From IMG/VR virus record IMGVR_UViG_2595698618_000001, positions 79,136 to 143,135 of that record: 64,000 bases of DNA. One strand, written 5' to 3'. Made by a program: the position numbers and the translations under genes. Position 1 is the stretch's first letter, and each line of letters opens with the position of its first letter. Shown in pieces: positions 1 to 39,075 of the stretch. The DNA comes from a virus (taxonomy: Duplodnaviria > Heunggongvirae > Uroviricota > Caudoviricetes). The notes under the pieces were generated by a model. The model saw nothing but the letters and a program-made list of their open reading frames with translations. It had not been told where the DNA came from and searched no databases.

Positions 1-94
1 GTCAAGCAGTACCTTCTCTCCAAAGTCCGTCTCCACAATCTCCGTTGCTGTGATTGTCTCAGTCATTACAACCTATACTTGGACTCCCGACTAT

Positions 95-4470: not shown

Positions 4471-5141
4471 ACGAGCCTCCCAAGGTGGAATTTAATGGAG
4501 CGAATCCAGTCGGTGAGTGTGCCGGAGCGTCCGAGAATGTCTTGCCGCGTGTTCTCGGAGACGCCCATCCCCTTCATTGCACCGGGTGCAAGGCTCACGT
4601 CACGGAGTTTCTCCCATCCGAACAGTTCGCCAATCTCGTCGTATTCCTCGGTACGCTCGACGCCGATAACGGCATTCTCGTCGTGAATGTCGTGAACGAC
4701 AGCGACCTTATCAGGATGGAACGAACTGTATCCCATATAGACTTGCCCATTTGGATTAGCCGCGACGACGCTTGCAAGATACATCATATCGAATGCATCG
4801 TCGGCTTCGTTTTCGAGTGCAGTCTTGGGTGCGTCTCGTTTGACGACTGGGACGAAGCGGTTCAGCGCCTCGACGTATTCGGTTGCATCCTCGACGGATT
4901 CAGGCTCGACTATCGACAGAGCGCGAACCATTTTGATTCCGAGGTGAACGTTTGCGTCTACGTCCATCTCGTAATTGTCTGCGCTGTCTGGCAGGTTGTA
5001 GAGCATATCCACGAGGCGTGCCATATCGTCCGAAAGTTCGACGCCGTACAGTTCCTCCAAGCCGTGTGAGGCGTCGGTCCCGTAAGACTGGCCGCCAAAC
5101 TTCACGGCATACATCAACACTTGAAGGTCCTGCCGATTCAT
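4467..5141 (-). CDS. hypothetical protein (224 aa)
   Basis: ORF-track ORF, ATG. Confidence 0.55.
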   Translation of the reverse strand: MNRQDLQVLMYAVKFGGQSYGTDASHGLEELYGVELSDDMARLVDMLYNLPDSADNYEMDVDANVHLGIKMVRALSIVEPESVEDATEYVEALNRFVPVVKRDAPKTALENEADDAFDMMYLASVVAANPNGQVYMGYSSFHPDKVAVVHDIHDENAVIGVERTEEYDEIGELFGWEKLRDVSLAPGAMKGMGVSENTRQDILGRSGTLTDWIRSIKFHLGRLV

Positions 5142-6730
5142 TACTGAACCCGTGCCGTGCTTTCCACAAGGTTCTCAGGCTCCAGTTCGAGGATGGTTTG
5201 AAGCGGGTCGTTCGTGCCGTCAATCATATCGAACACGTCAACCACTCGACCTTCGAACTGGTCCTTGAACTGTGCGCCAACCCACTTCCAGAACACGTCG
5301 TGGCTCTGGAGACGGTCACGGTCGCTGGTCGGCTCAGGGAGAGTCAGGTCGCCCGACTCGCTGTGAATGTCGAAAGGCTCCAACTCGTCTTCGGGAACGT
5401 AGAGTTCCGCCCGACCAGCATCCATCGAATCCCACTCATCCTCGTCCACGATGGTCTTACCCTTGTGCGGGCCGAAGATAACACGAGCCTGACCCGGTTC
5501 GTCGTCTTCCGACAGGTCGGAGCGCGTGATGTAATCGTGAGGCGGGAGCGGGCGGTCAGCCGAAAGCGTGTCTTCCGTAACCACCATACTACCCTCATTC
5601 GGACCTTCCGCAACCTCCTGCCCAACAATGTCACCAGCATTGAGCAATTCTCGCGTGATGTACGGGTCCCGTGCTTCCTTCAGCATCTCACGGTAATCCG
5701 AACGCGGGCACGGCATCAGACCCTCGTACCCTTGGTCCGACTTAATAACCTTGCCGGATTCATCCAGCAGGCGAACGTCGAACGGGAAGGGAGCGCCGTG
5801 CTTCCCACCAGAGTCGTTCCGGTCGATGGGCATAGACAGCAGAAGCGTCTTCGTAGAGGCTTCCGCCGAACACGTTGCAACGAAGTCACCCTCCGACTTG
5901 AGTTCGAGGGTAATCATATTGGGGTCGTATTCATCCGTGAACTGCTTGTCACCCCAATCCTCGTTGAAGACCTCCTGACCCGTCTCGTCGTACTCTCGGT
6001 AGATTACGGGGACACGCATCCACTCTGCGAACCGCTCGACAGCGGAGCGAATGTCGAAATTGCCGTCCGGCGTCATCTGGAACTTCGTCCCGTACTGGTC
6101 TTCGGGGAGTTTCCCCATAATCGGCTCAGGACCAGCGAGGCTGACGTAAGTGCTGAAGTTCTCGTCAGTCTGGCGCGAGTGAGTCGTCATAACCATCGAG
6201 TTGTCCAACCCGATAAGTTTGACGAATGACAGCGCACCCATACCGAACTGACCGCTGTAACTACCCGTGTCACGAGCGGCGGAGTTGCCAATCTGACGGA
6301 ACACCTCGTCAACCTCCTTCGACGCCATACCGATACCATTGTCACGAATCTCGACCTTGTTCTCCGAACGGTCCCACGTAACCTCAATACGAGGCTCGTA
6401 GCCATCCTCCGTTCCATAGAGACTGTCCACGTTCAGCGTAGTCTCAGTCCCGTGGTCGAGGAAGTTCTGGACTCGGAGGCAGGCGGTTTCCGCATTCGCC
6501 AGATACTCACGAATCGTAGCCTCCCACGACTCATACAGGTCGTCAGCCACCTTTCGAATCAGGTGTCGCAAGTCAGCCTCAAACGAGAGCGGGTCTGCAC
6601 CGAGCGGGTGGTCGGACCCTGCCGCGTTGAGGTTCTTGTGCTGAACCGAAGTCTTGCCTTCTTGATAGACGGGGTTGAAGCCGTCGTCTGCCGTTTCCGC
6701 ATCTTCCGTGCTGTTATCTCGCTCACTCAT
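5141..6730 (-). CDS. GHKL-superfamily ATPase (Hsp90/MutL/TopoVI-B/MORC-like Bergerat fold)
   Basis: Motifs E-x-x-x-N-A-E-T-A, DNGIGM, GQFGMGALSF in N-terminal half; paralog of 17631..20243. Confidence 0.7.
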   Translation of the reverse strand: MSERDNSTEDAETADDGFNPVYQEGKTSVQHKNLNAAGSDHPLGADPLSFEADLRHLIRKVADDLYESWEATIREYLANAETACLRVQNFLDHGTETTLNVDSLYGTEDGYEPRIEVTWDRSENKVEIRDNGIGMASKEVDEVFRQIGNSAARDTGSYSGQFGMGALSFVKLIGLDNSMVMTTHSRQTDENFSTYVSLAGPEPIMGKLPEDQYGTKFQMTPDGNFDIRSAVERFAEWMRVPVIYREYDETGQEVFNEDWGDKQFTDEYDPNMITLELKSEGDFVATCSAEASTKTLLLSMPIDRNDSGGKHGAPFPFDVRLLDESGKVIKSDQGYEGLMPCPRSDYREMLKEARDPYITRELLNAGDIVGQEVAEGPNEGSMVVTEDTLSADRPLPPHDYITRSDLSEDDEPGQARVIFGPHKGKTIVDEDEWDSMDAGRAELYVPEDELEPFDIHSESGDLTLPEPTSDRDRLQSHDVFWKWVGAQFKDQFEGRVVDVFDMIDGTNDPLQTILELEPENLVESTARVQ

Positions 6731-6758
6731 TGTATTAGTTACTTTGTTGGATTACTAC

Positions 6759-7052
6759 TTAAACCTTTCGCCGCGTCATTTCATTCGCCTCAGAGACAGC
6801 ATCTCGAACGAGGCGTCGAATGTCCTCCTCCGAACGCATACTCTTGATAGCGTCGAACACTTCCGTCAGGGTGACAACATCATCCGTAGAGACAAGAGCC
6901 ACCTCTGCCTCGAAGTTATCACCAAGTTCGACATACATCGTGCTATCGCTGAACGAAGTCTCCTCCGAAACTGTTGCAAGGAAAGCCTCTCCCTCAAGGA
7001 TTTCCTCGGACTCTACCACTACATCTTGACCGTCAGTATACGTGCTTGCCAT
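6759..7052 (-). CDS. acidic hypothetical protein
   Basis: ORF-track ORF, ATG. Confidence 0.5.
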   Translation of the reverse strand: MASTYTDGQDVVVESEEILEGEAFLATVSEETSFSDSTMYVELGDNFEAEVALVSTDDVVTLTEVFDAIKSMRSEEDIRRLVRDAVSEANEMTRRKV

Positions 7053-7076
7053 ATCTTATAATACTCCGGTATCTAC

Positions 7077-7343
7077 TTAACTGTTTCGAATCGACTCAAC
7101 ACTCGCCTCAATAGACTCAAACTGCGTGAGTCCCTGAAACGAATCTCGCACAGTCCCGTCTTCCTCAACGACAATAAACGGGATTCCACGAACGTTGTAA
7201 TTATTAGCAACGCCCTGATGCTCATCCACATCAACACGCTCAACCTCAACGTCAAGTTCGTCTTCGACTCTATCAATAATCGGGTGCTGTGACTCGCAAG
7301 GACCACACCACTCTGCTGTAAACTGTAGAACTTTGATTGTCAT
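7077..7343 (-). CDS. trx: thioredoxin
   Basis: WCGPC active-site motif; size and topology typical of thioredoxin. Confidence 0.8.
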   Translation of the reverse strand: MTIKVLQFTAEWCGPCESQHPIIDRVEDELDVEVERVDVDEHQGVANNYNVRGIPFIVVEEDGTVRDSFQGLTQFESIEASVESIRNS

Positions 7344-7369
7344 ACAATTGTATTTCGCTCGCTATCCAC

Positions 7370-7675
7370 TTAAGGGTTTCGGTCCCAAGGCAATTCATCA
7401 ATCTCCCAATAAATCACATTATCGCCAGAGATAACCGCGCTCGGCTCGAATCCCACAAGATACATCACGCCCATCAGAGCGAGATTATTCCGCATAAATT
7501 CTATGTGGTCAAGAGCGTCGTCACTATCCGAAATGTTCAAATCTTGCTGAACGGCAAACTTCGTGCCATCAGTTTCGGGGAAGTCACACTCTCTCCATTC
7601 GAGTACGACAGGGTTTCCCCACAACTCAAAAACTTTCCGTCCTTTGTCAACTGTAAAGCCTAATGCGAATCCCAT
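7370..7675 (-). CDS. hypothetical protein
   Basis: ORF-track ORF, ATG. Confidence 0.5.
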   Translation of the reverse strand: MGFALGFTVDKGRKVFELWGNPVVLEWRECDFPETDGTKFAVQQDLNISDSDDALDHIEFMRNNLALMGVMYLVGFEPSAVISGDNVIYWEIDELPWDRNP

Positions 7676-7700
7676 ATTGGGATTTACGTGGCCCGTCTAC

Positions 7701-7931
7701 TTAAGGGTATCGACGTTGCACGTATTCGGTGAGTTCGCAATCGGAATCCGAATCGAAGAATAGTAGTTTGTGTACGCGCATATAACCCGAGACTGGGCCA
7801 GACACTTTGATGATTACTTCATCTGTCTCCTTGTCGTACCCCACTACGTCGAATGATGCTTCGCCACTAATATCCATAGTGACCGCACCATTCTCCTTTT
7901 GGAAGTTTACCTTACCAGAATGTTGTCCCAT
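7701..7931 (-). CDS. hypothetical protein
   Basis: ORF-track ORF, ATG. Confidence 0.5.
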   Translation of the reverse strand: MGQHSGKVNFQKENGAVTMDISGEASFDVVGYDKETDEVIIKVSGPVSGYMRVHKLLFFDSDSDCELTEYVQRRYP

Positions 7932-8016
7932 ATATAATAATCCTCCCGAGAGAAACCGCCTACTCTCCTTCCACTCCTTATTCTATATACGATACCCTAC
8001 TACTTAAACCTTTCGA

Positions 8017-8232
8017 TTACTCATTTGTATAATCCTCGGGGTCTATATCTTCGTAGTCTCGTTCCTCCATCTGTTCCTCGATTGACTCGATTGCCTGCTC
8101 CTCTTTGTGAGAAGTAGTATCGTCGTCCACGTCGCAAGAACAGCGAGGATAATCGCAACCAGTCAACGGCCTCGGGCAATCGTGCTTATAATCGTACTGT
8201 CCATAATCGCCTTGATTTGATGGGTTTGCCAT
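8017..8232 (-). CDS. Cys-rich acidic small protein
   Basis: ORF-track ORF starts at GTG inside promoter; ATG (MANPSNQ) has ggcgaaagaCTTAAGTG 22 nt upstream. Confidence 0.5.
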   Translation of the reverse strand: MANPSNQGDYGQYDYKHDCPRPLTGCDYPRCSCDVDDDTTSHKEEQAIESIEEQMEERDYEDIDPEDYTNE

Positions 8233-8248
8233 ACTGTTACTACTCTTG

Positions 8249-8566
8249 CTATTCACTTAAGTCTTTCGCCATACTCAACTCTCCAATTGGCTTCGTCCAA
8301 GCGACACACCGAGAACTGACCGTATACCGAATCGACCAGCCCATTCTGTCAAGAACCATCGTTTTCAGCATACGCTCGTGCGTCCATTGCATAAGTTCTT
8401 CCGTGGTACAGTTATTCGGAACTTTGACACTATCTTTGTGAATTGCTGTGCCCTCGACGTTTCGCATCTTTTTCCAATCCACTTCGAATAGGCGGTCGCC
8501 TAATTGGTATTTTTCGGTTCCCTTCAGAACCATTCTATCATCCTCGTCTCGTCCCCAATTAGCCAT
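8249..8566 (-). CDS. hypothetical protein
   Basis: ORF-track ORF, ATG. Confidence 0.5.
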   Translation of the reverse strand: MANWGRDEDDRMVLKGTEKYQLGDRLFEVDWKKMRNVEGTAIHKDSVKVPNNCTTEELMQWTHERMLKTMVLDRMGWSIRYTVSSRCVAWTKPIGELSMAKDLSE

Positions 8567-8963
8567 CGTGACGCTTGCACGTTTCGATGTAACGCTTACC
8601 CGAGGCGACGAGTTCTGGACTCACAGGAGCGTGACCGGCTCGCGTGTCGTACAGAACCTCCTCCCAGTTCTTGCCTTCCTTTACAGCGAGCATTGCCGTG
8701 ACGACAGCCGTGCTTCGACTGACGCCAGCCTGACAATGGACTAAGAGTTTGTCGCCCGCGTCGTAAGCCTGCCGCGCTTGGCGCACCGCTTGACCGAACG
8801 TGTAGTGGTCGTGTGAGCCATCGGCTATCGGGAATCTATAATCAGCGTTACCCGAATCGTAATCGTCAATTCGGACCATCGAAATGATGGTGTCAAACTG
8901 CTCGTGATGGTTCTTCGCATCAAGGCAGTCACCAATCCACAAGTTGTCTCGTACTTTTCTCAT
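8559..8963 (-). CDS. dual-specificity / tyrosine protein phosphatase
   Basis: CX5R P-loop HCQAGVSRS; upstream WIGD motif. Confidence 0.75.
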   Translation of the reverse strand: MRKVRDNLWIGDCLDAKNHHEQFDTIISMVRIDDYDSGNADYRFPIADGSHDHYTFGQAVRQARQAYDAGDKLLVHCQAGVSRSTAVVTAMLAVKEGKNWEEVLYDTRAGHAPVSPELVASGKRYIETCKRHDG

Positions 8964-9002
8964 ACGAGAGTATACGACGGATAGGGTAAAAAGAGTTTCG
9001 GT

Positions 9003-9866
9003 TTAAACTTGCCAATTATTTCCGCCATATTTCGGACCCACATCTTCCTGCGAGTCGTACATATCTTGGGCGGAGTCGTCCTGTTCTTCAGGCGGGTTCT
9101 TCGGCTGAAGCGTGCCCGTGACCTCACAATCCTGCCGCTCAAGCCAGTCCTGCCACTTATCGTGGGAGTCGCCGCGCTTCTTCTGACCGAACGACGGGAC
9201 ACTATCCGCACGCTTCTGCATATTCCACTCGATGAAGTTGTAGACCGGAACCATCGACCGACCAGCGGCCCACCGCTCCTCACGCTGATTCTGCGGAATC
9301 GGAATCACCAGAATCGGGCCAGCCTCCTCGTCATACTCCTGCGGTTCAGGAGGCAGAGTGCTGAACTTACCGTCGTCAGGGTCGGGAATCGGACGAAAGT
9401 TTTGCGGCATCATCGTCATCTTGAAATCCTGCATATCATCAGGCGTGTCATCATCCATCCCAACCTCGTCCTTCTTGACAGTCTTGACACCATTACCATT
9501 ATCACGCTCGGTCGGCTGTTGGTCATCGTCAGAGGACGGGTCCACGACTTGAGGACCACGTTCCTGCATCTCTAACTCAAATTCCGATAGAGCATCCCAC
9601 GGAACCATATGCCCCTCCGTCTCGATACAGAGGATAGCATCTCCTGCCTCGTGGTCTTCATCATCGCTGTCGGCAACACGCCAATGGTACGAGAAGAACT
9701 CGTTGTCACCGTACTCGTTCTCTGCGATACGCTCAATATCCGACTTGAACTCGTCGGAGAGACGGTAGACCTTGCCGTTAACGCAGACGCTCAAGGCCAT
9801 ATCCTCGTAGGCTTCCGGCTCCTTCTCGGGTTCGTACTCGGACTCTGAATCTTGATTCTCACTCAT
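9003..9866 (-). CDS. very acidic hypothetical protein
   Basis: ORF-track ORF; ATG at 9866 with TTTAAGTA promoter upstream (track start 9872 is GTG). Confidence 0.55.
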   Translation of the reverse strand: MSENQDSESEYEPEKEPEAYEDMALSVCVNGKVYRLSDEFKSDIERIAENEYGDNEFFSYHWRVADSDDEDHEAGDAILCIETEGHMVPWDALSEFELEMQERGPQVVDPSSDDDQQPTERDNGNGVKTVKKDEVGMDDDTPDDMQDFKMTMMPQNFRPIPDPDDGKFSTLPPEPQEYDEEAGPILVIPIPQNQREERWAAGRSMVPVYNFIEWNMQKRADSVPSFGQKKRGDSHDKWQDWLERQDCEVTGTLQPKNPPEEQDDSAQDMYDSQEDVGPKYGGNNWQV

Positions 9867-9904
9867 ACTCACTAATAGGGTAGGGTATTACTTAAACCCT
9901 TCGG

Positions 9905-10498
9905 TTACTGTCTCCAGAAATTCTCAAACTCTGCCTCGGAGGAGAATACGCTGTTGTCTCCTCGAATCAGGTCGAGTTTCTGAGACGAGCCGATGTTGTT
10001 CGTCGTCCCGCTACCATTCGACCGAGACGCCATCTTCCACTTTTCGTTGATGATAATATCCTCGATGGAAACCATATCAATCGTCTTCGCTTCAGGCTCC
10101 CATTGATACGCGAATAGTAGGACCCAATGCTCGTCGTAGGAATTATACGGATACTTAATCCACGGGCTGTCGTCGTCGGGACTACTAAAGTAACTCTTAC
10201 AGGTCCCGAGAGTCACACCGCCTTCGAGCGAGTCGGCATTCTTCATCTGAGCAGTCTTAATATCTAATGCTACTCGCTCGTTCGAATTGAAGGTTATGTC
10301 AGGATATTGGCGTGAGTGGTCTGGTCGTTCTATGTCGTGGACTAATTCAATCTTCTGAATTGCCAATTCCTCGACAATAGCCGTTACTGGATTTGACGTG
10401 CGTGGCACGTCTGAGACGAGGCCGTTTGTATGTAGGATTCCTTCAATGTCCCATTCGAACTCGTCAAATAGCGGCTCGATTTCTCGTTTAACGTTCAT
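9905..10498 (-). CDS. hypothetical protein (197 aa)
   Basis: ORF-track ORF, ATG. Confidence 0.55.
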   Translation of the reverse strand: MNVKREIEPLFDEFEWDIEGILHTNGLVSDVPRTSNPVTAIVEELAIQKIELVHDIERPDHSRQYPDITFNSNERVALDIKTAQMKNADSLEGGVTLGTCKSYFSSPDDDSPWIKYPYNSYDEHWVLLFAYQWEPEAKTIDMVSIEDIIINEKWKMASRSNGSGTTNNIGSSQKLDLIRGDNSVFSSEAEFENFWRQ

Positions 10499-10793
10499 AC
10501 GTTCTTACTTCGATTTTGTGCGGGATAAGTCTTTCGATGTATTCTGTATTGAGATATTCCTTCACTTCAAACTGCGGGCGTGGCTTAAGTGCAGACTGCC
10601 CATAAGTGAAGACAACCATCCATTTCGTCAAGCGGCTGGCATCTTCGAATGGGTAGGTCACGTCAACCAGTTCTTCGACTACAATCTGGTCGCCGTTTAG
10701 TGTTGGCGTAACGCCGACAGTATCGTGATGCAGGAATCTCTCGGTATTTCCGTCCTTCCATTTCACGTCGAATAAAATTCTATAATACTTCAC
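10488..10793 (-). CDS. hypothetical protein (GTG start, coupled)
   Basis: ORF-track ORF; GTGA overlap with upstream stop. Confidence 0.4.
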   Translation of the reverse strand: MKYYRILFDVKWKDGNTERFLHHDTVGVTPTLNGDQIVVEELVDVTYPFEDASRLTKWMVVFTYGQSALKPRPQFEVKEYLNTEYIERLIPHKIEVRTYER

Positions 10794-11077
10794 GTTAGTT
10801 CCTCGATGCGTTCGACTGTTAGTTCTTGCAGTTCGTCCTTAGAATCTGCAATGATTTTAATTTCCCGAGTGTGACCATCGGGGAGTGCCTGAAAGTATGC
10901 GTAGACTCGCTCGTTTTCGTCACGCAGTTCGGCAACCCATTGCTCTACCTCTCCGTAATCTCCATTTAATGCTTTCTTGTGGCGTAGCCTGCGGCCAAAT
11001 TGGACGAGCATCGACGCTCCTCCGACAAAAAGTGTGGCCGCCGCGCCACCAATAATTACAGTAGTTGCTCCTACCAT
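10790..11077 (-). CDS. hypothetical protein with N-terminal TM segment
   Basis: ORF-track ORF, ATG. Confidence 0.5.
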   Translation of the reverse strand: MVGATTVIIGGAAATLFVGGASMLVQFGRRLRHKKALNGDYGEVEQWVAELRDENERVYAYFQALPDGHTREIKIIADSKDELQELTVERIEELT

Positions 11078-11108
11078 AAATCGTAGTACGGCTTACGACT
11101 ACTTAAAT

Positions 11109-11399
11109 CTACTGGTAGTCGAATAAGTCGCCTTGCTTGTCGTCTATATTCGCACGCCTATCGACTTCTCGAATGACGACAACAAAGCCATCGTCTAAGA
11201 GTGGCTCAATCTTCCACGTTTCCAAATCAACGTCAAGTTTACTGGAAACTTTCCTGACTTGTGTGTAAAGCCAATCCCATCCAATGTCCTCGTAGAAGAA
11301 CATATGGTATAAATACCGAGAATCCTCTACTGACTTTTTAGAGTAACCCGCTTGAACTTGATTGTGCAGTTTAGTCTGCACTAAATTTGCGTCTGTCAT
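11109..11399 (-). CDS. hypothetical protein
   Basis: ORF-track ORF, ATG. Confidence 0.5.
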   Translation of the reverse strand: MTDANLVQTKLHNQVQAGYSKKSVEDSRYLYHMFFYEDIGWDWLYTQVRKVSSKLDVDLETWKIEPLLDDGFVVVIREVDRRANIDDKQGDLFDYQ

Positions 11400-11429
11400 T
11401 CATCTCACTATACTATATTTATCGCGCTA

Positions 11430-11660
11430 CTACTTAACGTTTTCGGCTACTACGGGTGGGGTGCGTTGTTCCATAATCCACCAGAAGACCATCCCGATAG
11501 TGGCGGTTACTGCTACAATCACCGCGCACATATGGATTGCCGCAATTATTGGAAGTGTTGCAAACTGAAAAATAACGAATGTTGCAAAAACAATAACTGC
11601 GCTTAACAGATACGCGACCGCACTCACCAACCCCACCGTCTTATGTAATGGTTCAGCCAT
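11430..11660 (-). CDS. small membrane protein (2 TM)
   Basis: ORF-track ORF; hydrophobic. Confidence 0.5.
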   Translation of the reverse strand: MAEPLHKTVGLVSAVAYLLSAVIVFATFVIFQFATLPIIAAIHMCAVIVAVTATIGMVFWWIMEQRTPPVVAENVK

Positions 11661-11663
11661 AAT

Positions 11664-11771
11664 TCATATTTTCGCTCCTACCGCCTTAAGTTTACCAACG
11701 AATAGTTGAACTCCAATCAACGTCCCGACTACAGGAAGTCCTATCAAGACTTTTAGAAGGTTTCGAAGCAT
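11664..11771 (-). CDS. micro membrane protein (35 aa)
   Basis: Hand-found ORF MLRNLLKVLIGLPVVGTLIG...; cgaaaggTTTATATAC promoter ~26 nt upstream. Confidence 0.35.
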   Translation of the reverse strand: MLRNLLKVLIGLPVVGTLIGVQLFVGKLKAVGAKI

Positions 11772-11835
11772 CCTTCCTATTGTGCTATACGTAATCAAGG
11801 TATATAAACCTTTCGATTTAGGCGGCCTCTAACTC

Positions 11836-12180
11836 TCACAACTGGATTCGCATCATATCCATTTCGAGCATTTCATCCAACTTGTCGATTACGTATTGTG
11901 GAATGTCAATATCTGCCTCCGATAAGTGTGCTTTATCCCAATGCACATCCTCGACAGTACGCCAATTCCGACGAGAAATCATCGAATCAGCCGAGCAACG
12001 CTTCTCAACGTAATGCATCAGCGTCCACTTATCCCACTCCTTAGCGTGACTAAACGTAAAGTCCTTCTCAACTAACTCGCCTTCTTCCTCATCACGAACG
12101 GTGAATGTGAAGGAGACAGTAGGCTCTCCGTACAAATGTCCATCATCATCCTGAAACTCAGTCGTATCCGTCAGTTTCAT
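11836..12180 (-). CDS. hypothetical protein
   Basis: ORF-track ORF 11836..12360 begins at TTG; internal ATG (MKLTDTTEF) overlaps ATGA with stop of TM ORF 12177..12353. Confidence 0.45.
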   Translation of the reverse strand: MKLTDTTEFQDDDGHLYGEPTVSFTFTVRDEEEGELVEKDFTFSHAKEWDKWTLMHYVEKRCSADSMISRRNWRTVEDVHWDKAHLSEADIDIPQYVIDKLDEMLEMDMMRIQL

Positions 12181-12353
12181 CGGAGTGCCAGTACCATCCC
12201 TGCGAGCAGACTTAGCACTAAGGCGATTCCACCAAGGACGAATAGCGTTCCTGACCCGAGTAGCACACCCAAGCCGATGAAAATCCACCCACCGACAAAG
12301 CCTCCGGCTAACGGGTCTGTGAATATCTCGGCCATTGCGGTAATCATATTCAT
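12177..12353 (-). CDS. small transmembrane protein (58 aa)
   Basis: Hand-found ORF MNMITAMAEIFTDPLAGGFVGGWIFIGLGV...; textbook promoter ccgaaaagTTTTAATA 22 nt upstream. Confidence 0.5.
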   Translation of the reverse strand: MNMITAMAEIFTDPLAGGFVGGWIFIGLGVLLGSGTLFVLGGIALVLSLLAGMVLALR

Positions 12354-12377
12354 ACCGCAATGTACGCCGTATACGTA

Positions 12378-12752
12378 TTAAAACTTTTCGGTTCGCGTTT
12401 CGATACCCTCACCGTTGAAGCAGATAAGCATTCCACCATCAACGTCGAGATTCGCATCTTCAGCGCCTAAGTTCAAGTAAGAACGCAACTGCTCCATACC
12501 TGCCTTAGAACCAGCCTTAAGTTCGACAATAATGAGAACATCGTCATTGTGACCTACCACAAGGTCAGGGCGGCGGTAGGCGATAGGCTTCCCTCGGTAC
12601 ATAATGGAGAAATTAGACTCAGAGGAAAACTCTACTCCTCTGTGCGAAAGTTCAGTCTCCATTGCATTATGATATGCTCGTTCTGAAAGTCCAGAACCAA
12701 GTTCCTCAAAGACCCGTTCTGCACTCTCCTCAATCTCCTCGTACAAAGACAT
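12378..12752 (-). CDS. PD-(D/E)xK nuclease, Holliday-junction-resolvase (Hjc)-like
   Basis: RRPDLVV...IIVELKAGS (D...E-x-K) pattern; ATG at 12752 has cgaaagATTTATAAG promoter 22 nt upstream (track start 12773 is GTG). Confidence 0.5.
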   Translation of the reverse strand: MSLYEEIEESAERVFEELGSGLSERAYHNAMETELSHRGVEFSSESNFSIMYRGKPIAYRRPDLVVGHNDDVLIIVELKAGSKAGMEQLRSYLNLGAEDANLDVDGGMLICFNGEGIETRTEKF

Positions 12753-12790
12753 ACGTGTGTTTACGTCTTCCACACTTATAAATCTTTCGA

Positions 12791-13015
12791 TTATCTCAAG
12801 TCTTCTCTATCGTACAACATAGCATACGCGACTCGAACCATCCCGCGCATTTCCTCCTGCTCACGCTTGGGAAAGTAGTGTAACGGTTGCTCCTCACGCA
12901 TTTCACGAACTTTACCCCTCGTACAAGAGAGGTAATGATAGCCGCGTGAAGTATCGAATATTAACGTGACCTTCTTTTGAGCCAAGTTATAGCGGAAGCC
13001 ATCTATTTGAACCAT
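12791..13015 (-). CDS. hypothetical protein
   Basis: ORF-track ORF 12791..13105 overlaps plus-strand gene; internal ATG 13015 has ccgaaaTGGTTATATAG promoter 20 nt upstream. Confidence 0.4.
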   Translation of the reverse strand: MVQIDGFRYNLAQKKVTLIFDTSRGYHYLSCTRGKVREMREEQPLHYFPKREQEEMRGMVRVAYAMLYDREDLR

Positions 13016-13039
13016 ACGAATAATTCGACGGCAGACTAT

Positions 13040-13089
13040 ATAACCATTTCGGCCAAAGATATAAGTACCCGTAGCGCGAATAGATTCAT
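13040..13089. promoter_or_regulatory. back-to-back divergent BRE/TATA promoter pair at strand-switch
   Basis: ccgaaatggTTATATAg (minus, drives 13015) and ccaaagaTATAAGTA (plus, drives 13090) share the same ~40 bp. Confidence 0.55.
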
Positions 13090-13200
13090 ATGAATCCAGT
13101 AACATTCATCAAAGAATTAGCACTCGGTATCGCAGTAGCCATCGGACTACTCGCAATCGCATTGTTCTTTATAATCGTACTATTAATCCTCGTACTATGA
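13090..13200 (+). CDS. micro membrane protein (36 aa)
   Basis: Hand-found ORF MNPVTFIKELALGIAVAIGLLAIALFFIIVLLILVL; promoter 22 nt upstream; ATGA junction with next gene. Confidence 0.45.
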   Translation: MNPVTFIKELALGIAVAIGLLAIALFFIIVLLILVL

Positions 13201-13433
13201 GAGTCCGAAAAGAACGTGAAGCGTGGCGCACCTACGATTTCGGAGTATACGGTGGCAAGCCAGTTGCACTTCAACAAAAGTGGGCGCTCTATTCAGTCAA
13301 AGAGCAAGAAACAAAACCCGCGCATCGTGGAAGAAACATCGCCATCTCTACCGATTTAGAAGCGTTCCCGACTGACGAATGGCGTGTCGTAGATATGCGC
13401 GAACTCGTAGACTACGATTTCCTCGATTCGTAA
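13197..13433 (+). CDS. hypothetical protein
   Basis: ORF-track ORF, ATG. Confidence 0.5.
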   Translation: MRVRKEREAWRTYDFGVYGGKPVALQQKWALYSVKEQETKPAHRGRNIAISTDLEAFPTDEWRVVDMRELVDYDFLDS

Positions 13434-13465
13434 CCTTTAAGGTAGTTGGGTCCTAATCTTTGAGT

Positions 13466-13798
13466 ATGGTTAGAAAGATTGCAACGTGTGAACACGAGCG
13501 GCAGTTTGTAAAGCAGGCGATTAAGAGCCTTCGAAATGACTTAGAGGAGAACGTCTCTGGAGTGCAGAAGGTACGTTCTGTCATCGGAGATGAATTTGGC
13601 GACGTGGAAGTTCGCCTCTCTGGAAAGGAGGCCGCACACGACGGAGACTGGATTAATATCTACGAGGTCGAGGAATATGCACAGAAGCATAACTTCAAGA
13701 AGGGGTCGGCTCACGCTTACAACGAGCCGATTCGTGGGCAGATTGATGCTCACGTCAGTATGACCTTCTTCTACACATTTCCCGAGGTGGCAGAATGA
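13466..13798 (+). CDS. hypothetical protein
   Basis: ORF-track ORF (track start 13460 is TTG; ATG at 13466 fits agtATG pattern). Confidence 0.5.
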   Translation: MVRKIATCEHERQFVKQAIKSLRNDLEENVSGVQKVRSVIGDEFGDVEVRLSGKEAAHDGDWINIYEVEEYAQKHNFKKGSAHAYNEPIRGQIDAHVSMTFFYTFPEVAE

Positions 13799-14070
13799 GC
13801 GACGATGGCACGAACGTAAACTTCGACTTCAGCCCGACTGACTTCATCGTGGGTCTGGCGAGTATTTACGTTCTGTTCAATTATGGTGCGTTCCTCGCGT
13901 GGGCGGCAGGACTCGGCGCACCCTTCGCTGGACTTGCGACCATCATCGTGTATCTGCTCATCATTGTCGACGTCATTGAGACAATCGCGCTGGCTATCAT
14001 TGGAATCATCGCAGTCTTGTTCATCGTCGTTGCGCTGTTCAAGATATTACAATGGATTGTTAATCGGTAA
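13795..14070 (+). CDS. membrane protein (2-3 TM)
   Basis: ORF-track ORF; hydrophobic. Confidence 0.5.
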   Translation: MSDDGTNVNFDFSPTDFIVGLASIYVLFNYGAFLAWAAGLGAPFAGLATIIVYLLIIVDVIETIALAIIGIIAVLFIVVALFKILQWIVNR

Positions 14071-14101
14071 GGTTAAGTAACCTCGACTCCTTTTCCCCAA
14101 T

Positions 14102-14419
14102 ATGAGCAAGAAAGTTCCATATTGGGAAACCATCGAATACATTGGTGGCGGCTACGTCTTGCAAAAGAAGATGGCCGCCAAACTCAATTCTGACGGCAAT
14201 GCAGTTAAAGAGCGAGAGCCATACTTAAAGGTAATGGACTCGAATCAGGTGACGAAGACCTATCACTCTCGCAATGGTCCGACTGATTATAAAGTAAACC
14301 AGATTGAGGAATTATCCTCGGTACATAGAATCGTTCACGCTTCTGAATTAGAGGGAGTGGATACGGACGAACTTGCGGCAGATGCCGTGAAACGCTTCGG
14401 TTCAGAAATGGAACTATGA
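14102..14419 (+). CDS. hypothetical protein
   Basis: ORF-track ORF, ATG. Confidence 0.5.
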   Translation: MSKKVPYWETIEYIGGGYVLQKKMAAKLNSDGNAVKEREPYLKVMDSNQVTKTYHSRNGPTDYKVNQIEELSSVHRIVHASELEGVDTDELAADAVKRFGSEMEL

Positions 14420-14793
14420 AGCGAACAAAGACAGAGTTCCGCGTAGAGTCGGAGGAGATTGAAGTAATGGATTGTGAGTTCTGTGGGCAGGAGGAGCCTG
14501 TTGACGAATTAAAAGAAGTGAAGATTAACCCTCGCGCTCACCTCGCAGTAGATTATAGCGACACGATGCAGAAAGTAATTGAAAAGAAGGAGAACGAAGG
14601 GTGGGTCTTTGAAGAACGAGCGCCAACGTGGGACAGAGACGAATATCCAACTCCGAAGATGCATTCGTACAATCCGGGGATGGTCAAACTCTCTGTGAAA
14701 GAGATGATGGAAATCTTCGACGAGGCGTTGCAGATGCACGACGATGGCTCTATGAAAGTCTGCGCCTTCTGTGCGAAAAACTTAAGTAGATAG
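14416..14793 (+). CDS. zinc-ribbon protein (CEFCG...CAFC)
   Basis: ORF-track ORF; two CxxC pairs. Confidence 0.5.
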   Translation: MKRTKTEFRVESEEIEVMDCEFCGQEEPVDELKEVKINPRAHLAVDYSDTMQKVIEKKENEGWVFEERAPTWDRDEYPTPKMHSYNPGMVKLSVKEMMEIFDEALQMHDDGSMKVCAFCAKNLSR

Positions 14794-14810
14794 CCCGCGT
14801 TTGACTGAGT
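14781..14810 (+). promoter_or_regulatory. BRE/TATA core promoter (aaaaaCTTAAGTAgatagc...gagtATG)
   Basis: Consensus element 22 nt upstream of ATG 14811. Confidence 0.5.
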
Positions 14811-15938
14811 ATGACTTGGATTACAGAGACGGCTGACCGAATCGAGGCAGAACGTGATGCGCCTTATGTCGTAAAGGGAGGCGTCTCTCCCTCGGGGACT
14901 ATTCACGTCGGGCACTTAAACGAACTTCTCTTGCCGTACTTCGTGGCAGAGGAACTACGCTCGCGTGATTATCGTGTCACACAGTATATGACTGTAGACG
15001 ACCTCGACCCAAATGTGGATAACGCAGACGCACACGTTGACGAGTTAGAACGAGTAATCAATGCACTCGGCATCGACGTTCACATCTGGCGAGCAAGCGA
15101 TGCTTACGGGGGCGGCGCACACTTAATTAACCTCTCCCACGCTCGAAAGAGTCGAAGCCGGATTGAAAGCATCGTCTCTGACTATCAGGATACTGAAGAC
15201 TTCCAAATCTTTGATGGCGAGAAGATGCCGTGGCGTCTCGAATGGGCGGCACAATGGGCTACCCTCGAAGTAGACTTTGAGCCTTACGGAAAGGACCACG
15301 CTGAAGGCTCCTTTGAAAGTGCGGCACGAATCGCAGAAGCCGCGTTTGGAATCGAGCCTCCTGTAGACTTCGTGTACGAATGGTTCACTCTCGACGGAGC
15401 CGCAATGTCTTCTTCGAGCGGCGTGAACGTCTCGGCAGAAGACGTGCTACGCTGGATTTGCCCACAAGACTTGATGGCACTCTTTCGACGGAATCCGCAA
15501 AAGCAACGCGACTTCTCCGTTGAAGACATTCCATCAATGGTGGGAAGTGTAATCGAGGATGGACCAACCTACAAGGAGGCGAGTCGCTACTGGCTTGGAT
15601 ATACGTCCCCGTCTCGAAACCTATTCCGCGAGCAATCGTGGAGTATGGATTACTTCCCGCGAGTCGAAGCCGCCGGTCAATGGGCAGAAGACTTCGGAGA
15701 AGACTACACGCTTGAATCAACCGAAGCGGATTCGGATGTGGACGAGGTAAACGCCCTGCTCGAATACGCAATGGACGGCTATTCGCCAGAAGACGTGCAA
15801 TCCTACGCATACGAGCAGGCGAAGGAGTACGGTGACGTGGGCGACTTCTTCACTCAACTGTATCGACACGTTGTTGGGCAAGATGACGGCCCGCAGGCAG
15901 GAGAACTACTCTCGGCAATCTATGGGAGTAACACTTAA
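14811..15938 (+). CDS. class-I lysyl-tRNA synthetase-like protein, truncated (catalytic Rossmann core only)
   Basis: VSPSGTIHVGHLNE resembles archaeal class-I LysRS HIGH region (ITPSGxxHxGNxRE); AAMSSSSG resembles its KMSSS(KG) motif; ~375 aa versus ~520 aa for full LysRS. Confidence 0.5.
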   Translation: MTWITETADRIEAERDAPYVVKGGVSPSGTIHVGHLNELLLPYFVAEELRSRDYRVTQYMTVDDLDPNVDNADAHVDELERVINALGIDVHIWRASDAYGGGAHLINLSHARKSRSRIESIVSDYQDTEDFQIFDGEKMPWRLEWAAQWATLEVDFEPYGKDHAEGSFESAARIAEAAFGIEPPVDFVYEWFTLDGAAMSSSSGVNVSAEDVLRWICPQDLMALFRRNPQKQRDFSVEDIPSMVGSVIEDGPTYKEASRYWLGYTSPSRNLFREQSWSMDYFPRVEAAGQWAEDFGEDYTLESTEADSDVDEVNALLEYAMDGYSPEDVQSYAYEQAKEYGDVGDFFTQLYRHVVGQDDGPQAGELLSAIYGSNT

Positions 15939-15962
15939 GTAGATAGCCACCAATGTTCTAAT

Positions 15963-16271
15963 ATGGTCAAAATCAATCTGGACGACTACGACAAAGCGGC
16001 AGAGTTCGGTCCTGTGACGAAGTTCGAGCAGACTGTTCGGACTCCCGGCTGGCCTGACGATGAGGCTGAGTGCCGTAAGGTGATGTACGAAGCCGGGCAC
16101 TACTTCAAGGTCGCACGAATCAGCACCCTCGGTTGGGGCGTCACGGAATACAACGAGAACGGGCGTCCAATTCGACGCAGTTCCAGCGAGAACCTCGGTT
16201 ACTTCGATAACGAGGAAGATGCTCACGCTCAGGCCCGAGAGTGGGTGGAGGAATATGTATCGGAGCAGTAA
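15963..16271 (+). CDS. hypothetical protein
   Basis: ORF-track ORF, ATG. Confidence 0.5.
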   Translation: MVKINLDDYDKAAEFGPVTKFEQTVRTPGWPDDEAECRKVMYEAGHYFKVARISTLGWGVTEYNENGRPIRRSSSENLGYFDNEEDAHAQAREWVEEYVSEQ

Positions 16272-16753: not shown

Positions 16754-17441
16754 TCACCCGAACCTGCCCGAAGGCGTGCCGCTTGTTGCGGATTTCCACG
16801 ATATGCGGAATCGGTTGAGTTACTACTATCCAATCCTTCGAGATACGGATGGGGTTCGTACACCGATTACCCAATTTTACCGAATCGAGGGAGACTTCGG
16901 CTCATATCCCGAACTCGAATACCGCGAGATTACACGCTTTATGCAGGAACAGCAGATGCGCGAAGCGTTCGTGCGCGGAGATTATTCGAGTGCGAAATAC
17001 GACGAGTCAGGGAGACATATCGAGAGTCAGGACCCTTACGATATTGAGGGAACTGTCATTGAAATGATGCGACAACTCGCCCGAGGGAAACGGTATCTCG
17101 GTTCCCGAATTGCAGTACGGGAATGGGTTCCACCAGAGAAGGAGGTTCGCTACTTCTTCAAGAATGGACATATCTCGTATAAGGCAAGCCTTGACGACCC
17201 GATGGAGTTCCCCGATGAACAGGCCGAACGTGCGGCAAAGGCATTTGACAAGTATGCGTGGTCCTGCGATTTCATCAAGCACGAGGATACCGGAAAGTGG
17301 TATTGTATAGATATGGGACTCGACGGACTCTACCATAGCAAGAAGTACGGCTGGACTCCGCATAGTGAGCATCACGACGAGAAGTATTCCCCGAAGCAGT
17401 ACGTCGATGAGATGCCGAATCCGAAGGCTTTAAGGTACTAA
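16734..17441 (+). CDS. hypothetical protein (235 aa)
   Basis: ORF-track ORF, ATG. Confidence 0.55.
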   Translation: MEIPITNHPNLPEGVPLVADFHDMRNRLSYYYPILRDTDGVRTPITQFYRIEGDFGSYPELEYREITRFMQEQQMREAFVRGDYSSAKYDESGRHIESQDPYDIEGTVIEMMRQLARGKRYLGSRIAVREWVPPEKEVRYFFKNGHISYKASLDDPMEFPDEQAERAAKAFDKYAWSCDFIKHEDTGKWYCIDMGLDGLYHSKKYGWTPHSEHHDEKYSPKQYVDEMPNPKALRY

Positions 17442-17630: not shown

Positions 17631-20243
17631 ATGAGTTCAGAACAAGACGCGGCCAAGACCGACGACGAGTTTGCACAGTACCGCTCCACCGCTGGAGCCG
17701 AGGTTAAGACGGCAGATGTTGCGAGTGATACGCACCCCCTCAAGGCAGAAATCGGGGACCAGAAGGAGCGCATCTATGACGCAAAAATCGCCGGAGAACG
17801 GTTCGTTCAGTTCTACGACGATAGTGCGGCGGCTATCCGCGAGTATCTTTCCAACGCGGAGACTGCCTGCATCCGTCGAGCGCGGCACGAGTTGCTGGAT
17901 GCTGGTGTCTCGGAGCAGGACATTCCGAGTAACGTGGCAGACCTCATCGAGATGGCGCAGGAGGTTGCTGGATACGAACCTCTTATTGAAGTGACGTACA
18001 ATCGCAAGAGCGACGAGACTCGCCTCGTTATCGAGGATAACGGTATCGGCATCTCTGTCGAGGAATATCAGGTGCTTCAGCGCATCGGCTACTCCACGTC
18101 TCACGGAAACGGTGAGCGTCTTGGGCAGTTCGGGATGGGCTTTATGTCAGGGTTCCAACTGACGAGTATTCACGGTGCGTTCCGTATGTTCACCCGGTCG
18201 TACCTCACGGAAGAAGCGTACAGCACGGTGGAGTACGTGGCAAACTGTGAATATCTGGATGGCGCACCCGAGACTTACGGGACCCGTTTCGAGTTCCCCG
18301 AGTTCGGTGAGGCGGCGAAGGAGATTCACATCCCCGCAAAAGTGGCAGAATATGCGGAGGGGATGCGCGTCCCCGTCCTGTACCGGGATTTCAACTCCTC
18401 GGGTCAGGAGACTGCGGAGAGTGACGACTTCCTTCCCCGCAATATCGAGGATGATTACAGCGATGATAGTCTCGTCGTTACGTTCGAGAACGACTACTTC
18501 AAGGCTGTTATGAGTCCTGATAAGCCGACGAACCGCCCCAACTCTCACGAACTTGTCACGTACAACGTGACGATGCCTATTCGACGCAACCTCGATTCGT
18601 GGAGTACGAACGACAAGTTCGAGGCTCCGTGGAAGTGGGACTTCCGTGGCAAGAAGGAAGACGGCCCCATCGTGAAGTGCGAGTCCGATGCCTCCGTCGA
18701 GGGTCTGGTTCCTGTCGAGAACAGCAAGTACGACAATATGATTCAGGAACAGCAGGCCAAGCATCTCCCGATGAGCGACGTTCCCGACGACGCAATCGTG
18801 ATGCCCGGTCCTGCGTCCAGCCGAGACTCCTATATGGGAGGCCACGACGACTTCTGGAAGTACGTGTCGGAGTGCCTGAACGAAGCGTGGGCTGAGATTG
18901 CCAAGGAGCGTTTCGAGAACCTCTCGTCGTGGGATGACTTCAAGGCTCTTGAGCGTGACGAGAAGAACGCGCTCTACCGCGCCTACAGCCAGTTCGGTCC
19001 TTCTTACGGGACGAACGACCCTGATAACATTCAGGAGACGCTCGAAGATGCATTCGGCGTCACGGTCCCGAAGGACGTGTGTGAGAAGATTGACAAGTCT
19101 CGCAAGAGTCTGATGGTGGTTCCACGAGGTCACAATCAGGCTCACCACAAGAAGCCTGCCAAGCGCAACAAGAAGAAGATTTGGCAGATTATTGACGAAG
19201 CGCCCGATGGCGTCTATATGGGCAAGTCCGTCAGTCAGAAGAAGGCGGAGATTGCGTGGGGTCTTGGCGATACTCACGTCATTCGGATTCAGCCTGACGA
19301 TGGGCAGACCTCTAAAGAGCGATACGCGGAATTGGAGGAACTGTGGGGCTTCAAGAAGTTGAAGGACCTTCCCAACTCGAAACTCAAGGAGCGTCTTCCG
19401 AATCTGGACGACGACGTTGCTGAGGAGTGGGAGAACGCGGATTACGTCAACAACACGTCCTCGTCTGGCGGTCGTCGGACGAGCCGTGACCCTACCACGA
19501 AGCGTATCAAGGTTCGTGTCGGGAAGCGTAGCCACCGCTACTTCAGCCGCTCGAAAGTGTCGTACATCGTGGACCAGTTGGAGAACGACGATGGGATTCG
19601 TGCAGGCAACTACACGGTGAAGAAACTCATCATCTACGACCAGACGAAGGTGGGTTCTACCCCAAGCACTCGGCACGCTGACAAGTACGGCGAGCCGGGA
19701 ATCGCTGTCGCCGCTGTCCCGAAGTACGTCTACAACTACCTCAAGGACAAGAAGAACGTCTACACGGACTACGACTCCCTCAAGGATGAACTGGTGCAGG
19801 ACGAGTTGGACGAGTATGACAATTCGGAGACGCTTATCTTCGCATCGAGCGAAGTGTTCAACGAGTACGAATCGAACGAGCAGGAACTTGTCAGCCTCCT
19901 GAACGAACACTCCGACGCTGGCCTCAACGAAGACGCAGACATTGAGGTTTACAGCACGAGTGACGCGAAGAACATCAGCCACGCACAGGGCACGGACTTC
20001 AATGCGAAGGTCGTCTCTGTTAACGGGAACCGTGCGGCTCGCGGCCTGAGCGAAGCCGACTACAAACTCAATCTGGTGGACCTGAAGTTCGCCCGAGAGG
20101 TTCCTGAGATGGACTTCGACGCGCCTGAGTTCAAGCAGGTCTTCGGTCGCAAGAAGTACCTCGACGCGGATTCCGCGAAGATGAACCGTGGCATCGAGAT
20201 TGTTAAAGCCTGCGGAGGTAAGTGGCCGAGTCAGCAGGACTGA
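17631..20243 (+). CDS. large GHKL-superfamily ATPase-domain protein (870 aa)
   Basis: N-terminal region paralogous to 5141..6730 (REYLSNAETACIRRA; IEDNGIGIS; GQFGMGFMSGF); long basic/acidic C-terminal extension. Confidence 0.7.
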   Translation: MSSEQDAAKTDDEFAQYRSTAGAEVKTADVASDTHPLKAEIGDQKERIYDAKIAGERFVQFYDDSAAAIREYLSNAETACIRRARHELLDAGVSEQDIPSNVADLIEMAQEVAGYEPLIEVTYNRKSDETRLVIEDNGIGISVEEYQVLQRIGYSTSHGNGERLGQFGMGFMSGFQLTSIHGAFRMFTRSYLTEEAYSTVEYVANCEYLDGAPETYGTRFEFPEFGEAAKEIHIPAKVAEYAEGMRVPVLYRDFNSSGQETAESDDFLPRNIEDDYSDDSLVVTFENDYFKAVMSPDKPTNRPNSHELVTYNVTMPIRRNLDSWSTNDKFEAPWKWDFRGKKEDGPIVKCESDASVEGLVPVENSKYDNMIQEQQAKHLPMSDVPDDAIVMPGPASSRDSYMGGHDDFWKYVSECLNEAWAEIAKERFENLSSWDDFKALERDEKNALYRAYSQFGPSYGTNDPDNIQETLEDAFGVTVPKDVCEKIDKSRKSLMVVPRGHNQAHHKKPAKRNKKKIWQIIDEAPDGVYMGKSVSQKKAEIAWGLGDTHVIRIQPDDGQTSKERYAELEELWGFKKLKDLPNSKLKERLPNLDDDVAEEWENADYVNNTSSSGGRRTSRDPTTKRIKVRVGKRSHRYFSRSKVSYIVDQLENDDGIRAGNYTVKKLIIYDQTKVGSTPSTRHADKYGEPGIAVAAVPKYVYNYLKDKKNVYTDYDSLKDELVQDELDEYDNSETLIFASSEVFNEYESNEQELVSLLNEHSDAGLNEDADIEVYSTSDAKNISHAQGTDFNAKVVSVNGNRAARGLSEADYKLNLVDLKFAREVPEMDFDAPEFKQVFGRKKYLDADSAKMNRGIEIVKACGGKWPSQQD

Positions 20244-37762: not shown

Positions 37763-37794
37763 CACTTAAGGTAGTGGCTCCCCTCTCTTTGGGT

Positions 37795-39075
37795 ATGGAA
37801 CATACGCTACCAGAACTACCATCCGAGTTTGACGGACTCCCAACGTTTGTCGTTGGTGGATGGGTTCGTGACGCCTTCCGAGAGGGAGTCGAGCCTTCGG
37901 ACGTTGACTTGATGGTTACGGAAGTTACGCCAGAAGAAATGCGTGAGCGTGGCTTCACGGAGATTGATAACTCCGGCAACGACACATTCGCCGTCTTCCT
38001 CGATAGCCTCGGCAGAGAGGTTGCGATAGCAAGAGAGGAAGTCTCCACGGGAGAAGGGCACACGGATTTCACGGTCGAGCCAGTCCCGGCAAACGTTCGC
38101 GCTCTTGAAGCAGTCGAGCGTGACCTTTTGCGTAGGGATTTCACGGTTAACAGTATGGCGGTTGACGCTCGCAGAGGAATCCTCCACGACCCTCACGGTG
38201 GACGCCAAGCCTTAGAAGACGGCACGCTCCGTCACGTCAACGAGTCCGGCTTCATCGAAGACCCGCTACGCATCCTTCGAGGGGCACGGTTCGCCGCACG
38301 ACTCGGCGCAGAAGTCGCAGACGAGACGAAGATACTAATGGCAGAAATGTCACCACGCCTCCAAGACCTGCCCGGTGAGCGAATCCGTATGGAATTGGAG
38401 AAGAACTTCAAGCAAGCGAAGAATCCACGCATATTCTTCGACGTTCTTGAAGAAGTCTTCGCACTCGAATGGGCATTCCCCGAGTTGATGGCACTCAAGC
38501 ACGTTCCGGCAGGACCACCCGAGTTCCACAATGAAGGCTCCGCCTTTGAACACACGATGCTCGTCCTCGAAGAAATGTTCGAGTTACGCGGAAACGACGA
38601 GTTGGGTCTGCTGATGGCCTTAGCCCACGACTTAGGCAAGGTCGAGACGCCCGAAGACGAGTTACCAAGCCACCGTGGTCACGGTAACAGAGACGCTCCC
38701 CTATGGAGAATGAGCGATAGGCTTAAGTTCAGCAACCGCCAAGAGCGTGCAATGAGTGAAGCAATGCACCACCATATGCGCCTCAAGCACATCGAGGATA
38801 TGAACGAGAAGACGCTATTCGACACGTTCACGCACGTTCACAATCCAGATAGGCTGGTTGACTTGATGATAGCCGACGCTCGTGGGAGGGACCCGCAAGG
38901 AGACTTCCCTGCCGAGACGCTCAGGGACGCATTCGAGCGAGCCGAGCAAGCCTGCGAGAACGTCACGGGCCAAACGCTAATCAACGCCGGAAAACAGCCC
39001 GACGAGATAGGCGGCGAGAAGTTCGGCAAGTTGCTCAGAGACGCACGCATCAGCGAGATGAAAAGGCTTAAGTAA
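37795..39075 (+). CDS. class-II nucleotidyltransferase (CCA-adding / poly(A)-polymerase head) fused to HD phosphohydrolase domain
   Basis: GGWVRD...DVDLMV polβ head; HD...LAHDLGK; domain order as in bacterial CCA enzymes. Confidence 0.7.
   Translation: MEHTLPELPSEFDGLPTFVVGGWVRDAFREGVEPSDVDLMVTEVTPEEMRERGFTEIDNSGNDTFAVFLDSLGREVAIAREEVSTGEGHTDFTVEPVPANVRALEAVERDLLRRDFTVNSMAVDARRGILHDPHGGRQALEDGTLRHVNESGFIEDPLRILRGARFAARLGAEVADETKILMAEMSPRLQDLPGERIRMELEKNFKQAKNPRIFFDVLEEVFALEWAFPELMALKHVPAGPPEFHNEGSAFEHTMLVLEEMFELRGNDELGLLMALAHDLGKVETPEDELPSHRGHGNRDAPLWRMSDRLKFSNRQERAMSEAMHHHMRLKHIEDMNEKTLFDTFTHVHNPDRLVDLMIADARGRDPQGDFPAETLRDAFERAEQACENVTGQTLINAGKQPDEIGGEKFGKLLRDARISEMKRLK

Follow-up and report, generated by a model that had tools for sequence, protein, structure and literature searches.

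Among the known re-purposed class-I aminoacyl-tRNA synthetase cores, which are without a C-terminal tRNA-binding domain, is GluQ-RS (YadB; PDB 4a91), a truncated paralogue of the class-Ib glutamyl-tRNA synthetase that glutamylates queuosine in tRNA-Asp. GluQ-RS keeps the Zn-binding connective-peptide (CP) domain, the domain that binds the acceptor arm in the class-Ib relatives, and is without the whole C-terminal domain. The class-I lysyl-tRNA synthetase (LysRS-I; EC 6.1.1.6) reportedly needs bound tRNA even to activate lysine (Ibba et al. 1999), so that impaired tRNA binding would abolish all activity. In viruses, host-related synthetases are found in huge phages and giant viruses alongside large viral tRNA sets and genes for tRNA maturation or repair; the role proposed for them is the charging of viral tRNAs or the upkeep of translation, and for huge phages the suggestion is that phage synthetases act on phage tRNAs (PMC7162821).

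The stretch of DNA analysed here (the window; 64,000 nucleotides, position 1 corresponding to record position 79136) matches Halogranum tailed virus 1 (HGTV-1, KC292026/NC_021328) at 100% identity. The gene under study, whose translation includes both peptides quoted in the first-pass annotation of this DNA, is HGTV-1 gene 197 (AGM11494.1; UniProt R4T703). It is annotated in the record as 'class I lysyl tRNA synthetase', is named 'Lysine--tRNA ligase' in UniProt and figures in a single sentence of Liu et al. 2021 (PMC8651126), in a list that also holds 36 tRNA genes, a CCA-adding enzyme, two Rnl2-type ligases and RtcB; its identity was therefore already known. The synthetase goes unmentioned in a 2026 study of the virus and its host, Halogranum roseipondis (PMC13532342), and we found no discussion of the size or architecture of the product in the literature searched. 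New here are the compact architecture, its conservation under purifying selection in a viral clade of four members, and a rationale for its carriage in terms of lysine demand. The features discussed are collected in Table 1.

Table 1. Features of gene 197, its product and related loci. Nucleotide positions refer to the window unless stated otherwise; 'host' refers to the numbering of the 548-aa Halovenus salina enzyme.
Feature	Position	Strand	Basis or remark
Gene 197, CDS of compact class-I LysRS-like protein, 375 aa	14811..15938	+	ATG start
HIGH signature, H32-V-G-H35, start of first Rossmann helix	14904..14915	+	aligned to 1irx H35-V-G-N38
Deletion 1 junction, residues 67-73	15009..15029	+	alignments, host-model mapping
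Deletion 2 junction, between residues 130 and 131	15198..15203	+	alignments, host-model mapping
Second Rossmann half, W141 to KMSKS-equivalent loop A198-M-S-S-S-S-G204	15231..15422	+	invariant columns, 120 sequences
Deletion 3 junction, residues 276-279	15636..15647	+	host-model mapping
Retained C-terminal helical bundle, residues 279-375	15645..15935	+	aligns to 1irx 441-510
N-terminal loss, 18 aa	host 2-19		N-terminal extension
Deletion 1, 43 aa	host 86-91 and 98-134		hairpin/loop with near-invariant LRxxPR...IPDPFG..SYG motif
Deletion 2, 51 aa	host 192-242		all-β Cys/His (CxxC...CxH) insertion of CP region
Deletion 3, ~51 aa	host 382-387 and 391-435		2-3 helices of helical, presumed anticodon-binding domain
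Smaller losses	host 471-475 and 541-548		latter takes in basic C-terminal tail
Insertion, 7 aa	viral 246-252		without host counterpart
Gene 196, small protein with CxxC...CxxC motifs	14416-14793	+	17 nt upstream of gene 197
Gene 201, R2K-clade ATP-grasp domain (PF14243)	16776-17441	+	E = 2.4e-6, 28.3 vs 26.3 bits
RNA ligase	26037-26999
Gene 242, tRNA nucleotidyltransferase (CCA-adding enzyme)	37774..39075	+	record annotation, PMC8651126
tRNA-Lys(UUU)	record 48804-48876		outside window
tRNA-Lys(CUU)	record 50195-50271 (L006 5195-5271)	-	outside window
P0131, complete gene	L007 3373-4230		4.8-kb contig of GCA_003358065.1, among small unannotated ORFs

Family assignment and catalytic core

The gene 197 product matched PF01921 (tRNA-synt_1f) in three stretches with E = 1.6e-51 and 175.8 bits, against a gathering threshold of 27, and the runner-up class-I families in Pfam gave E > 0.04. 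The sole significant relative of solved structure found by sequence was 1irx, the LysRS-I of P. horikoshii (E = 2.3e-25). An AlphaFold2 model built with 120 homologues was compact and confident (pLDDT 87.5, pTM 0.82), being weakest at residues 260-310 (pLDDT 64-75); it places signature motifs of the HIGH and KMSKS type in a Rossmann fold whose closest structure is again LysRS-I. The first-pass annotation had proposed a class-I LysRS homologue, to be given up if the best match lay with the GluRS/GlnRS families or the catalytic geometry failed to appear in a predicted structure; with PF01921 and 1irx as the best matches and a confident model, the proposal stands, and the product is a class-I LysRS homologue. 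It nevertheless scores below the NCBIfam equivalog cut-offs, which denote the same function as the characterised enzymes (TIGR00467, 131.7 vs 147.55; NF001968, 90.1 vs 648), and this counts against its being a LysRS that is simply streamlined.

Column invariance was scored over 120 sequences, four viral and 116 haloarchaeal. The invariant catalytic columns comprise K22-G-G, S26-P-S-G29, H32, G34, N37 and E38 in the first half of the fold, H32 and G34 being those of the HIGH signature, and W141, R142, E144, W145, Q148, W149, G160-K-D-H-A-E-G-S167, Y189-E-W-F192 and S200-S202 in the second; the region 131-205 is 60% identical to the cellular enzymes. Four of these residues – E38, W141, H163 and Y189 – align with E41, W218, H240 and Y268 of 1irx, residues reported to belong to the lysine/ATP pocket (Terada et al. 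2002). A KMSSS-type loop had also been recognized in the first-pass annotation, and it reads AMSSSSG. Its 'degenerate' look might suggest inactivation, a reading that we rejected: ALSSSSG is the form of the loop in cellular haloarchaeal enzymes, and the viral loop is therefore a variant normal for the lineage.

Lost and retained parts of the enzyme

At approximately 170 aa below the ~548-aa haloarchaeal LysRS-I, the protein is short, as the first-pass annotation had remarked. The missing parts were mapped through alignments with haloarchaeal enzymes and an AlphaFold2 model of the Halovenus salina enzyme (pLDDT 92.9). Both rule out a simple C-terminal truncation; the shortening is made up of an N-terminal trim and three internal deletions, the first two of which fall within the catalytic half and the third within the helical domain. 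The IPDPFG loop removed by deletion 1 is kept in every full-length LysRS-I compared. So is the CP β-insertion removed by deletion 2, which binds Zn in most LysRS-I and has six β-strands in the host model, one of the enzymes that keep it being without the Cys ligands. The exact placement of deletion 3 is ambiguous, because the region is just 15% identical to the cellular enzymes, and one alignment gives an alternative placement.

The viral protein has in common with the cellular LysRS-I both halves of the Rossmann core, the HxGH signature, the xMSSS loop, the segment that follows this loop and the C-terminal helical bundle, whereas it has lost the IPDPFG loop and the CP β/Zn insertion, two or three helices and, at the two ends, the N-terminal extension and the basic tail. 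Approximately 140 residues are kept downstream of the KMSKS loop, under purifying selection and some of them invariant with respect to the cellular enzymes; the invariant positions in the C-terminal bundle are R284, W291, Q330, A337, F347, Y351, G360, P361 and G364, and residues 279-375 are 61% identical inside the viral clade and 31% identical to the cellular enzymes. The first-pass suggestion that the anticodon-binding domain is missing is therefore only partly right: helices of the presumed anticodon-binding domain are lost in deletion 3, but the bundle that aligns with 1irx, whose domain boundaries are taken provisionally, is kept. The helical region is also shortened in some cellular-type enzymes of 467-495 aa (P0146, P0150, P0189 and P0243), which are without ~30 aa there, so that a short helical domain may be tolerated; all four retain the IPDP loop and the β-insertion. 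The comparison with a stand-alone core of the GluQ-RS type, also made in the first-pass annotation, does not hold for the architecture, the pattern of which is reversed: the viral protein has the C-terminal helical domain and is without the CP insertion.

The losses extend to the surface. Over the 34 basic columns conserved in the cellular enzymes, the viral clade keeps 12, changes 12 and deletes 10, the C-terminal RLRRER tail being among the 22 that are changed or deleted; compared with other residue classes in the clade, basic residues show no significant excess of loss (p = 0.12). In the C-terminal half 70% of the hydrophobic core is kept, as against 33% of the basic and 19% of the acidic positions. 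The fold is thus preserved and the surface remodelled.

Distribution, selection and origin of the viral clade

A profile search of 5.8 billion non-redundant proteins found exactly four members of the compact clade, namely HGTV-1 and three metagenome proteins (373-380 aa, 59-74% identity), the next-best matches being haloarchaeal LysRS-I of ~547 aa. An exhaustive profile search of 1.84 billion representatives gave one cluster at 710 bits, after which the scores fall to 230 bits. No copy of the compact form was found in 185,579 species genomes, no further clade members in two scans of IMG/VR, and no short forms among the best 80 matches listed in a metagenome scan. HGTV-1 is the sole record with a relative among 50,697 phage and archaeal-virus records, and PHROGs has no family matching the gene 197 product, bearing out the first-pass remark that a viral copy is unusual. 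The gene resembles the synthetase genes of huge phages and giant viruses in that it lies in a bona fide viral genome with a viral tRNA cluster and is related to, but distinct from, the host-type enzymes; it differs from them in coming from an archaeal virus, in being miniaturised and in having no LysRS-I relative in the other deposited records. The one other viral class-I LysRS-like structure in BFVD, A0A345MNG5 (Foldseek E = 3.9e-19), is of full length at 511 aa.

The boundaries of the deletions are identical, and in frame, in all four members. Synonymous sites in the clade are saturated (pS 0.70-0.83; pN 0.17-0.29), dN/dS is at most about 0.06-0.19 where computable, and conservation is 52-76% in every region, the C-terminal helices included; the compact clade is under strong purifying selection. 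The contigs that carry the three metagenome proteins are all HGTV-1-like. One of them (L002) is collinear with window positions 4058-16271, whereas the other two (L003 and L004) have HGTV-1 genes in altered order and keep the LysRS-like gene despite the shuffled neighbourhood. In a neighbour-joining tree the viral sequences were monophyletic (100/100) and grouped with the haloarchaeal enzymes (98/100), as a long-branched sister of haloarchaeal LysRS-I to which they are ~40% identical over aligned columns. Taken together, the distribution of the clade, the shared deletions, the selection and the position in the tree indicate that the gene was captured from a haloarchaeon long ago and has since undergone reduction.

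Beyond the viral clade, the CP insertion was missing only in a few isolated compact proteins – P0131 (285 aa), P0133 (313 aa) and P0206 (299 aa) – which likewise keep HIGH-like and KMSSS motifs. These belong to other LysRS-I lineages, and differ from the viral form in being true cores, which stop ~55 aa past the KMSSS loop and have no helical domain. They were rejected as a second family, P0131 being a singleton; closest to it, at 38% identity, come ordinary enzymes of ~495 aa. Two further candidates (P0122 and P0126, 391-397 aa) are database artefacts, frameshifted full-length haloarchaeal genes with Arg/Pro-rich out-of-frame tails.

Proposed function, rival explanations and gene neighbourhood

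The same HGTV-1 genome encodes both tRNA-Lys isoacceptors, a CCA-adding enzyme, RNA ligases and RtcB. [quoted passage not shown] Both viral tRNA-Lys fold as a cloverleaf with A73, and, because neither gene encodes the CCA, the gene 242 enzyme is needed. Lysine makes up 4.45% of the predicted HGTV-1 proteome (genome 50.4% GC) vs 1.73% in haloarchaeal genes, the latter being 44 genes from two haloarchaeal genomes of 62-64% GC rather than from the true host; the ratio of 2.57 is the highest for the 20 amino acids, asparagine being second at 2.12. This over-use gives a concrete, and testable, supply-side reason for the virus to carry LysRS in particular.

On balance, we think it somewhat more likely than not that gene 197 encodes a streamlined LysRS of host derivation, still catalytic, that boosts the supply of Lys-tRNA. 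Lysine and ATP would bind the conserved Rossmann pocket (HVGH, the xMSSS loop and E38/W141/H163/Y189), Lys-AMP would be formed, a step that probably requires bound tRNA here as it does in other LysRS-I, and lysine would then be passed to A76 of tRNA-Lys, which could be the viral UUU and CUU species, that of the host, or both, the viral species having first been given CCA by the gene 242 product. Deprived of the IPDPFG loop, the CP β/Zn insertion and some of its helical domain, the enzyme would hold the tRNA through what it has kept downstream of the KMSKS loop, namely the segment next to this loop and the C-terminal helices. A viral proteome with ~2.6 times the lysine usage of haloarchaeal proteomes would benefit from the additional Lys-tRNA-Lys. 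Apart from the equivalog scores, the absence of the IPDPFG loop and CP β-insertion, both universal in the full-length forms aligned, speaks against a streamlined LysRS, as do the dependence of LysRS-I on bound tRNA and the change or deletion of so many conserved basic positions, although the latter loss does not significantly exceed that of other residue classes.

Several of these features would also fit a lysine-activating enzyme that has been re-purposed, one which still makes Lys-AMP but either charges a non-canonical acceptor – a modified tRNA base in the manner of GluQ-RS, a protein, a small molecule or viral DNA – or charges only the divergent tRNA-Lys of the virus through a new mode. 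The acceptor-side modules universal in the cellular LysRS-I compared are gone, the charged C-terminal surface has turned over around a largely intact hydrophobic core, the branch is long, an R2K ATP-grasp gene lies four genes downstream, and the viral tRNAs differ from the host tRNAs in sequence (PMC13532342). However, the protein has kept its post-KMSKS residues under purifying selection, unlike the GluQ-RS type, and has no conserved partner, genes 201 and 196 being without a counterpart beside the gene in L003 and L004; a trans-supplied Zn module was likewise disfavoured by the comparison described below. We accordingly regard re-purposing as the main rival, though an unlikely one. Slightly less credible still is that shedding the acceptor-side CP/Zn and IPDPFG modules and remodelling the C-terminal surface created a pair private to the virus, in which the enzyme would recognise only the divergent viral tRNA-Lys by a new mode, or would pass lysine to a non-tRNA acceptor; if so, HGTV-1 would keep decoding lysine when the tRNA-Lys or LysRS of the host is limiting or under attack.

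The lost modules could also be essential to catalysis on tRNA, in which case the protein would be a non-catalytic remnant that binds tRNA-Lys, or lysine and ATP, as a decoy, a regulator or a shield against host anticodon nucleases. tRNA-Lys is a classic target of such nucleases (PrrC), and the virus has a tRNA-repair toolkit in RtcB, the RNA ligases and the CCA-adding enzyme. The catalytic signature is, however, strictly invariant across the four viral members despite the saturation of their synonymous sites, and such invariance would be unexpected if binding alone mattered, which makes a remnant of this kind improbable. A decaying pseudogene, or an assembly artefact, of a captured host lysS might account for the shortness and the low equivalog scores, but is effectively excluded by in-frame deletions common to four independent sequences, by the low dN/dS and by the compact, confident model; the real frameshifted haloarchaeal copies, P0122 and P0126, look different.

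If the streamlined LysRS is active, it would be the most reduced LysRS-I in these searches and would mean that a class-Ib synthetase can do without the near-invariant IPDPFG loop, the CP β/Zn insertion and some of its anticodon-binding domain, with a bearing on ideas of minimal synthetases ('urzymes') and on the engineering of compact or orthogonal LysRS/tRNA pairs. Should it instead prove to be inactive or to have been re-purposed, it would add a case of synthetase neofunctionalisation with a domain pattern opposite to that of GluQ-RS. For virology, it pairs the sole LysRS-I relative among the deposited phage and archaeal-virus records with a large tRNA set.

Some details of the viral tRNAs and of the neighbouring genes may be added. 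In the anticodon loop of the viral tRNA-Lys(CUU), CUCUUGA, the residue 3' of the anticodon (position 37) is G; tRNAs reading ANN codons usually have A37. Both viral tRNA-Lys have G2-C71 rather than G2·U71, a pair reportedly essential for the LysRS-1 of Borrelia. An ARAGORN call of tRNA-Gly(TCC) at 41969-42053 (-), unannotated and antisense within gene 250, is probably a false positive; at the gathering threshold Rfam gave no tRNA anywhere in the window, and no regulatory RNA near gene 197.

The first knuckle of the gene 196 product, DCEFCGQE, gave a non-significant hhalign match over eight columns to the Zn knuckle VCQDCGQL lost from the viral LysRS. A split enzyme with its Zn module supplied by gene 196 or gene 200 was rejected on hhalign probabilities of 0.9% and 0.3%, respectively, and, for gene 196, also because no homologue adjoins the gene in L003 or L004; the homologue called in L002 begins past the first CxxC. 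Gene 201 is annotated 'hypothetical protein' and lies on the same strand as gene 197. The R2K ATP-grasp clade is predicted to consist of amidoligases. Functional coupling of gene 201 to gene 197 was rejected, as no counterpart was found in the L003 and L004 fragments.

Two proteins of the window have HSP90/GHKL-type ATPase domains (HATPase_c_3), the products of gene 172 (5141-6730, -) and gene 203 (17631-20243, +). Over its N-terminal ~380 aa the latter shares ~33% identity with the homologue of gene 172 in L002; the two genes are therefore paralogues, and both types are present again in the related contigs. Genes lie on the minus strand up to ~13015, on the plus strand from ~13090 to ~48.8 kb and then on the minus strand again, and both the GC skew and the AT skew switch sign at ~13015-13090 and at ~48950; because these changes of sign coincide with the switches in the direction of transcription, the skew tracks the coding strand across the window.
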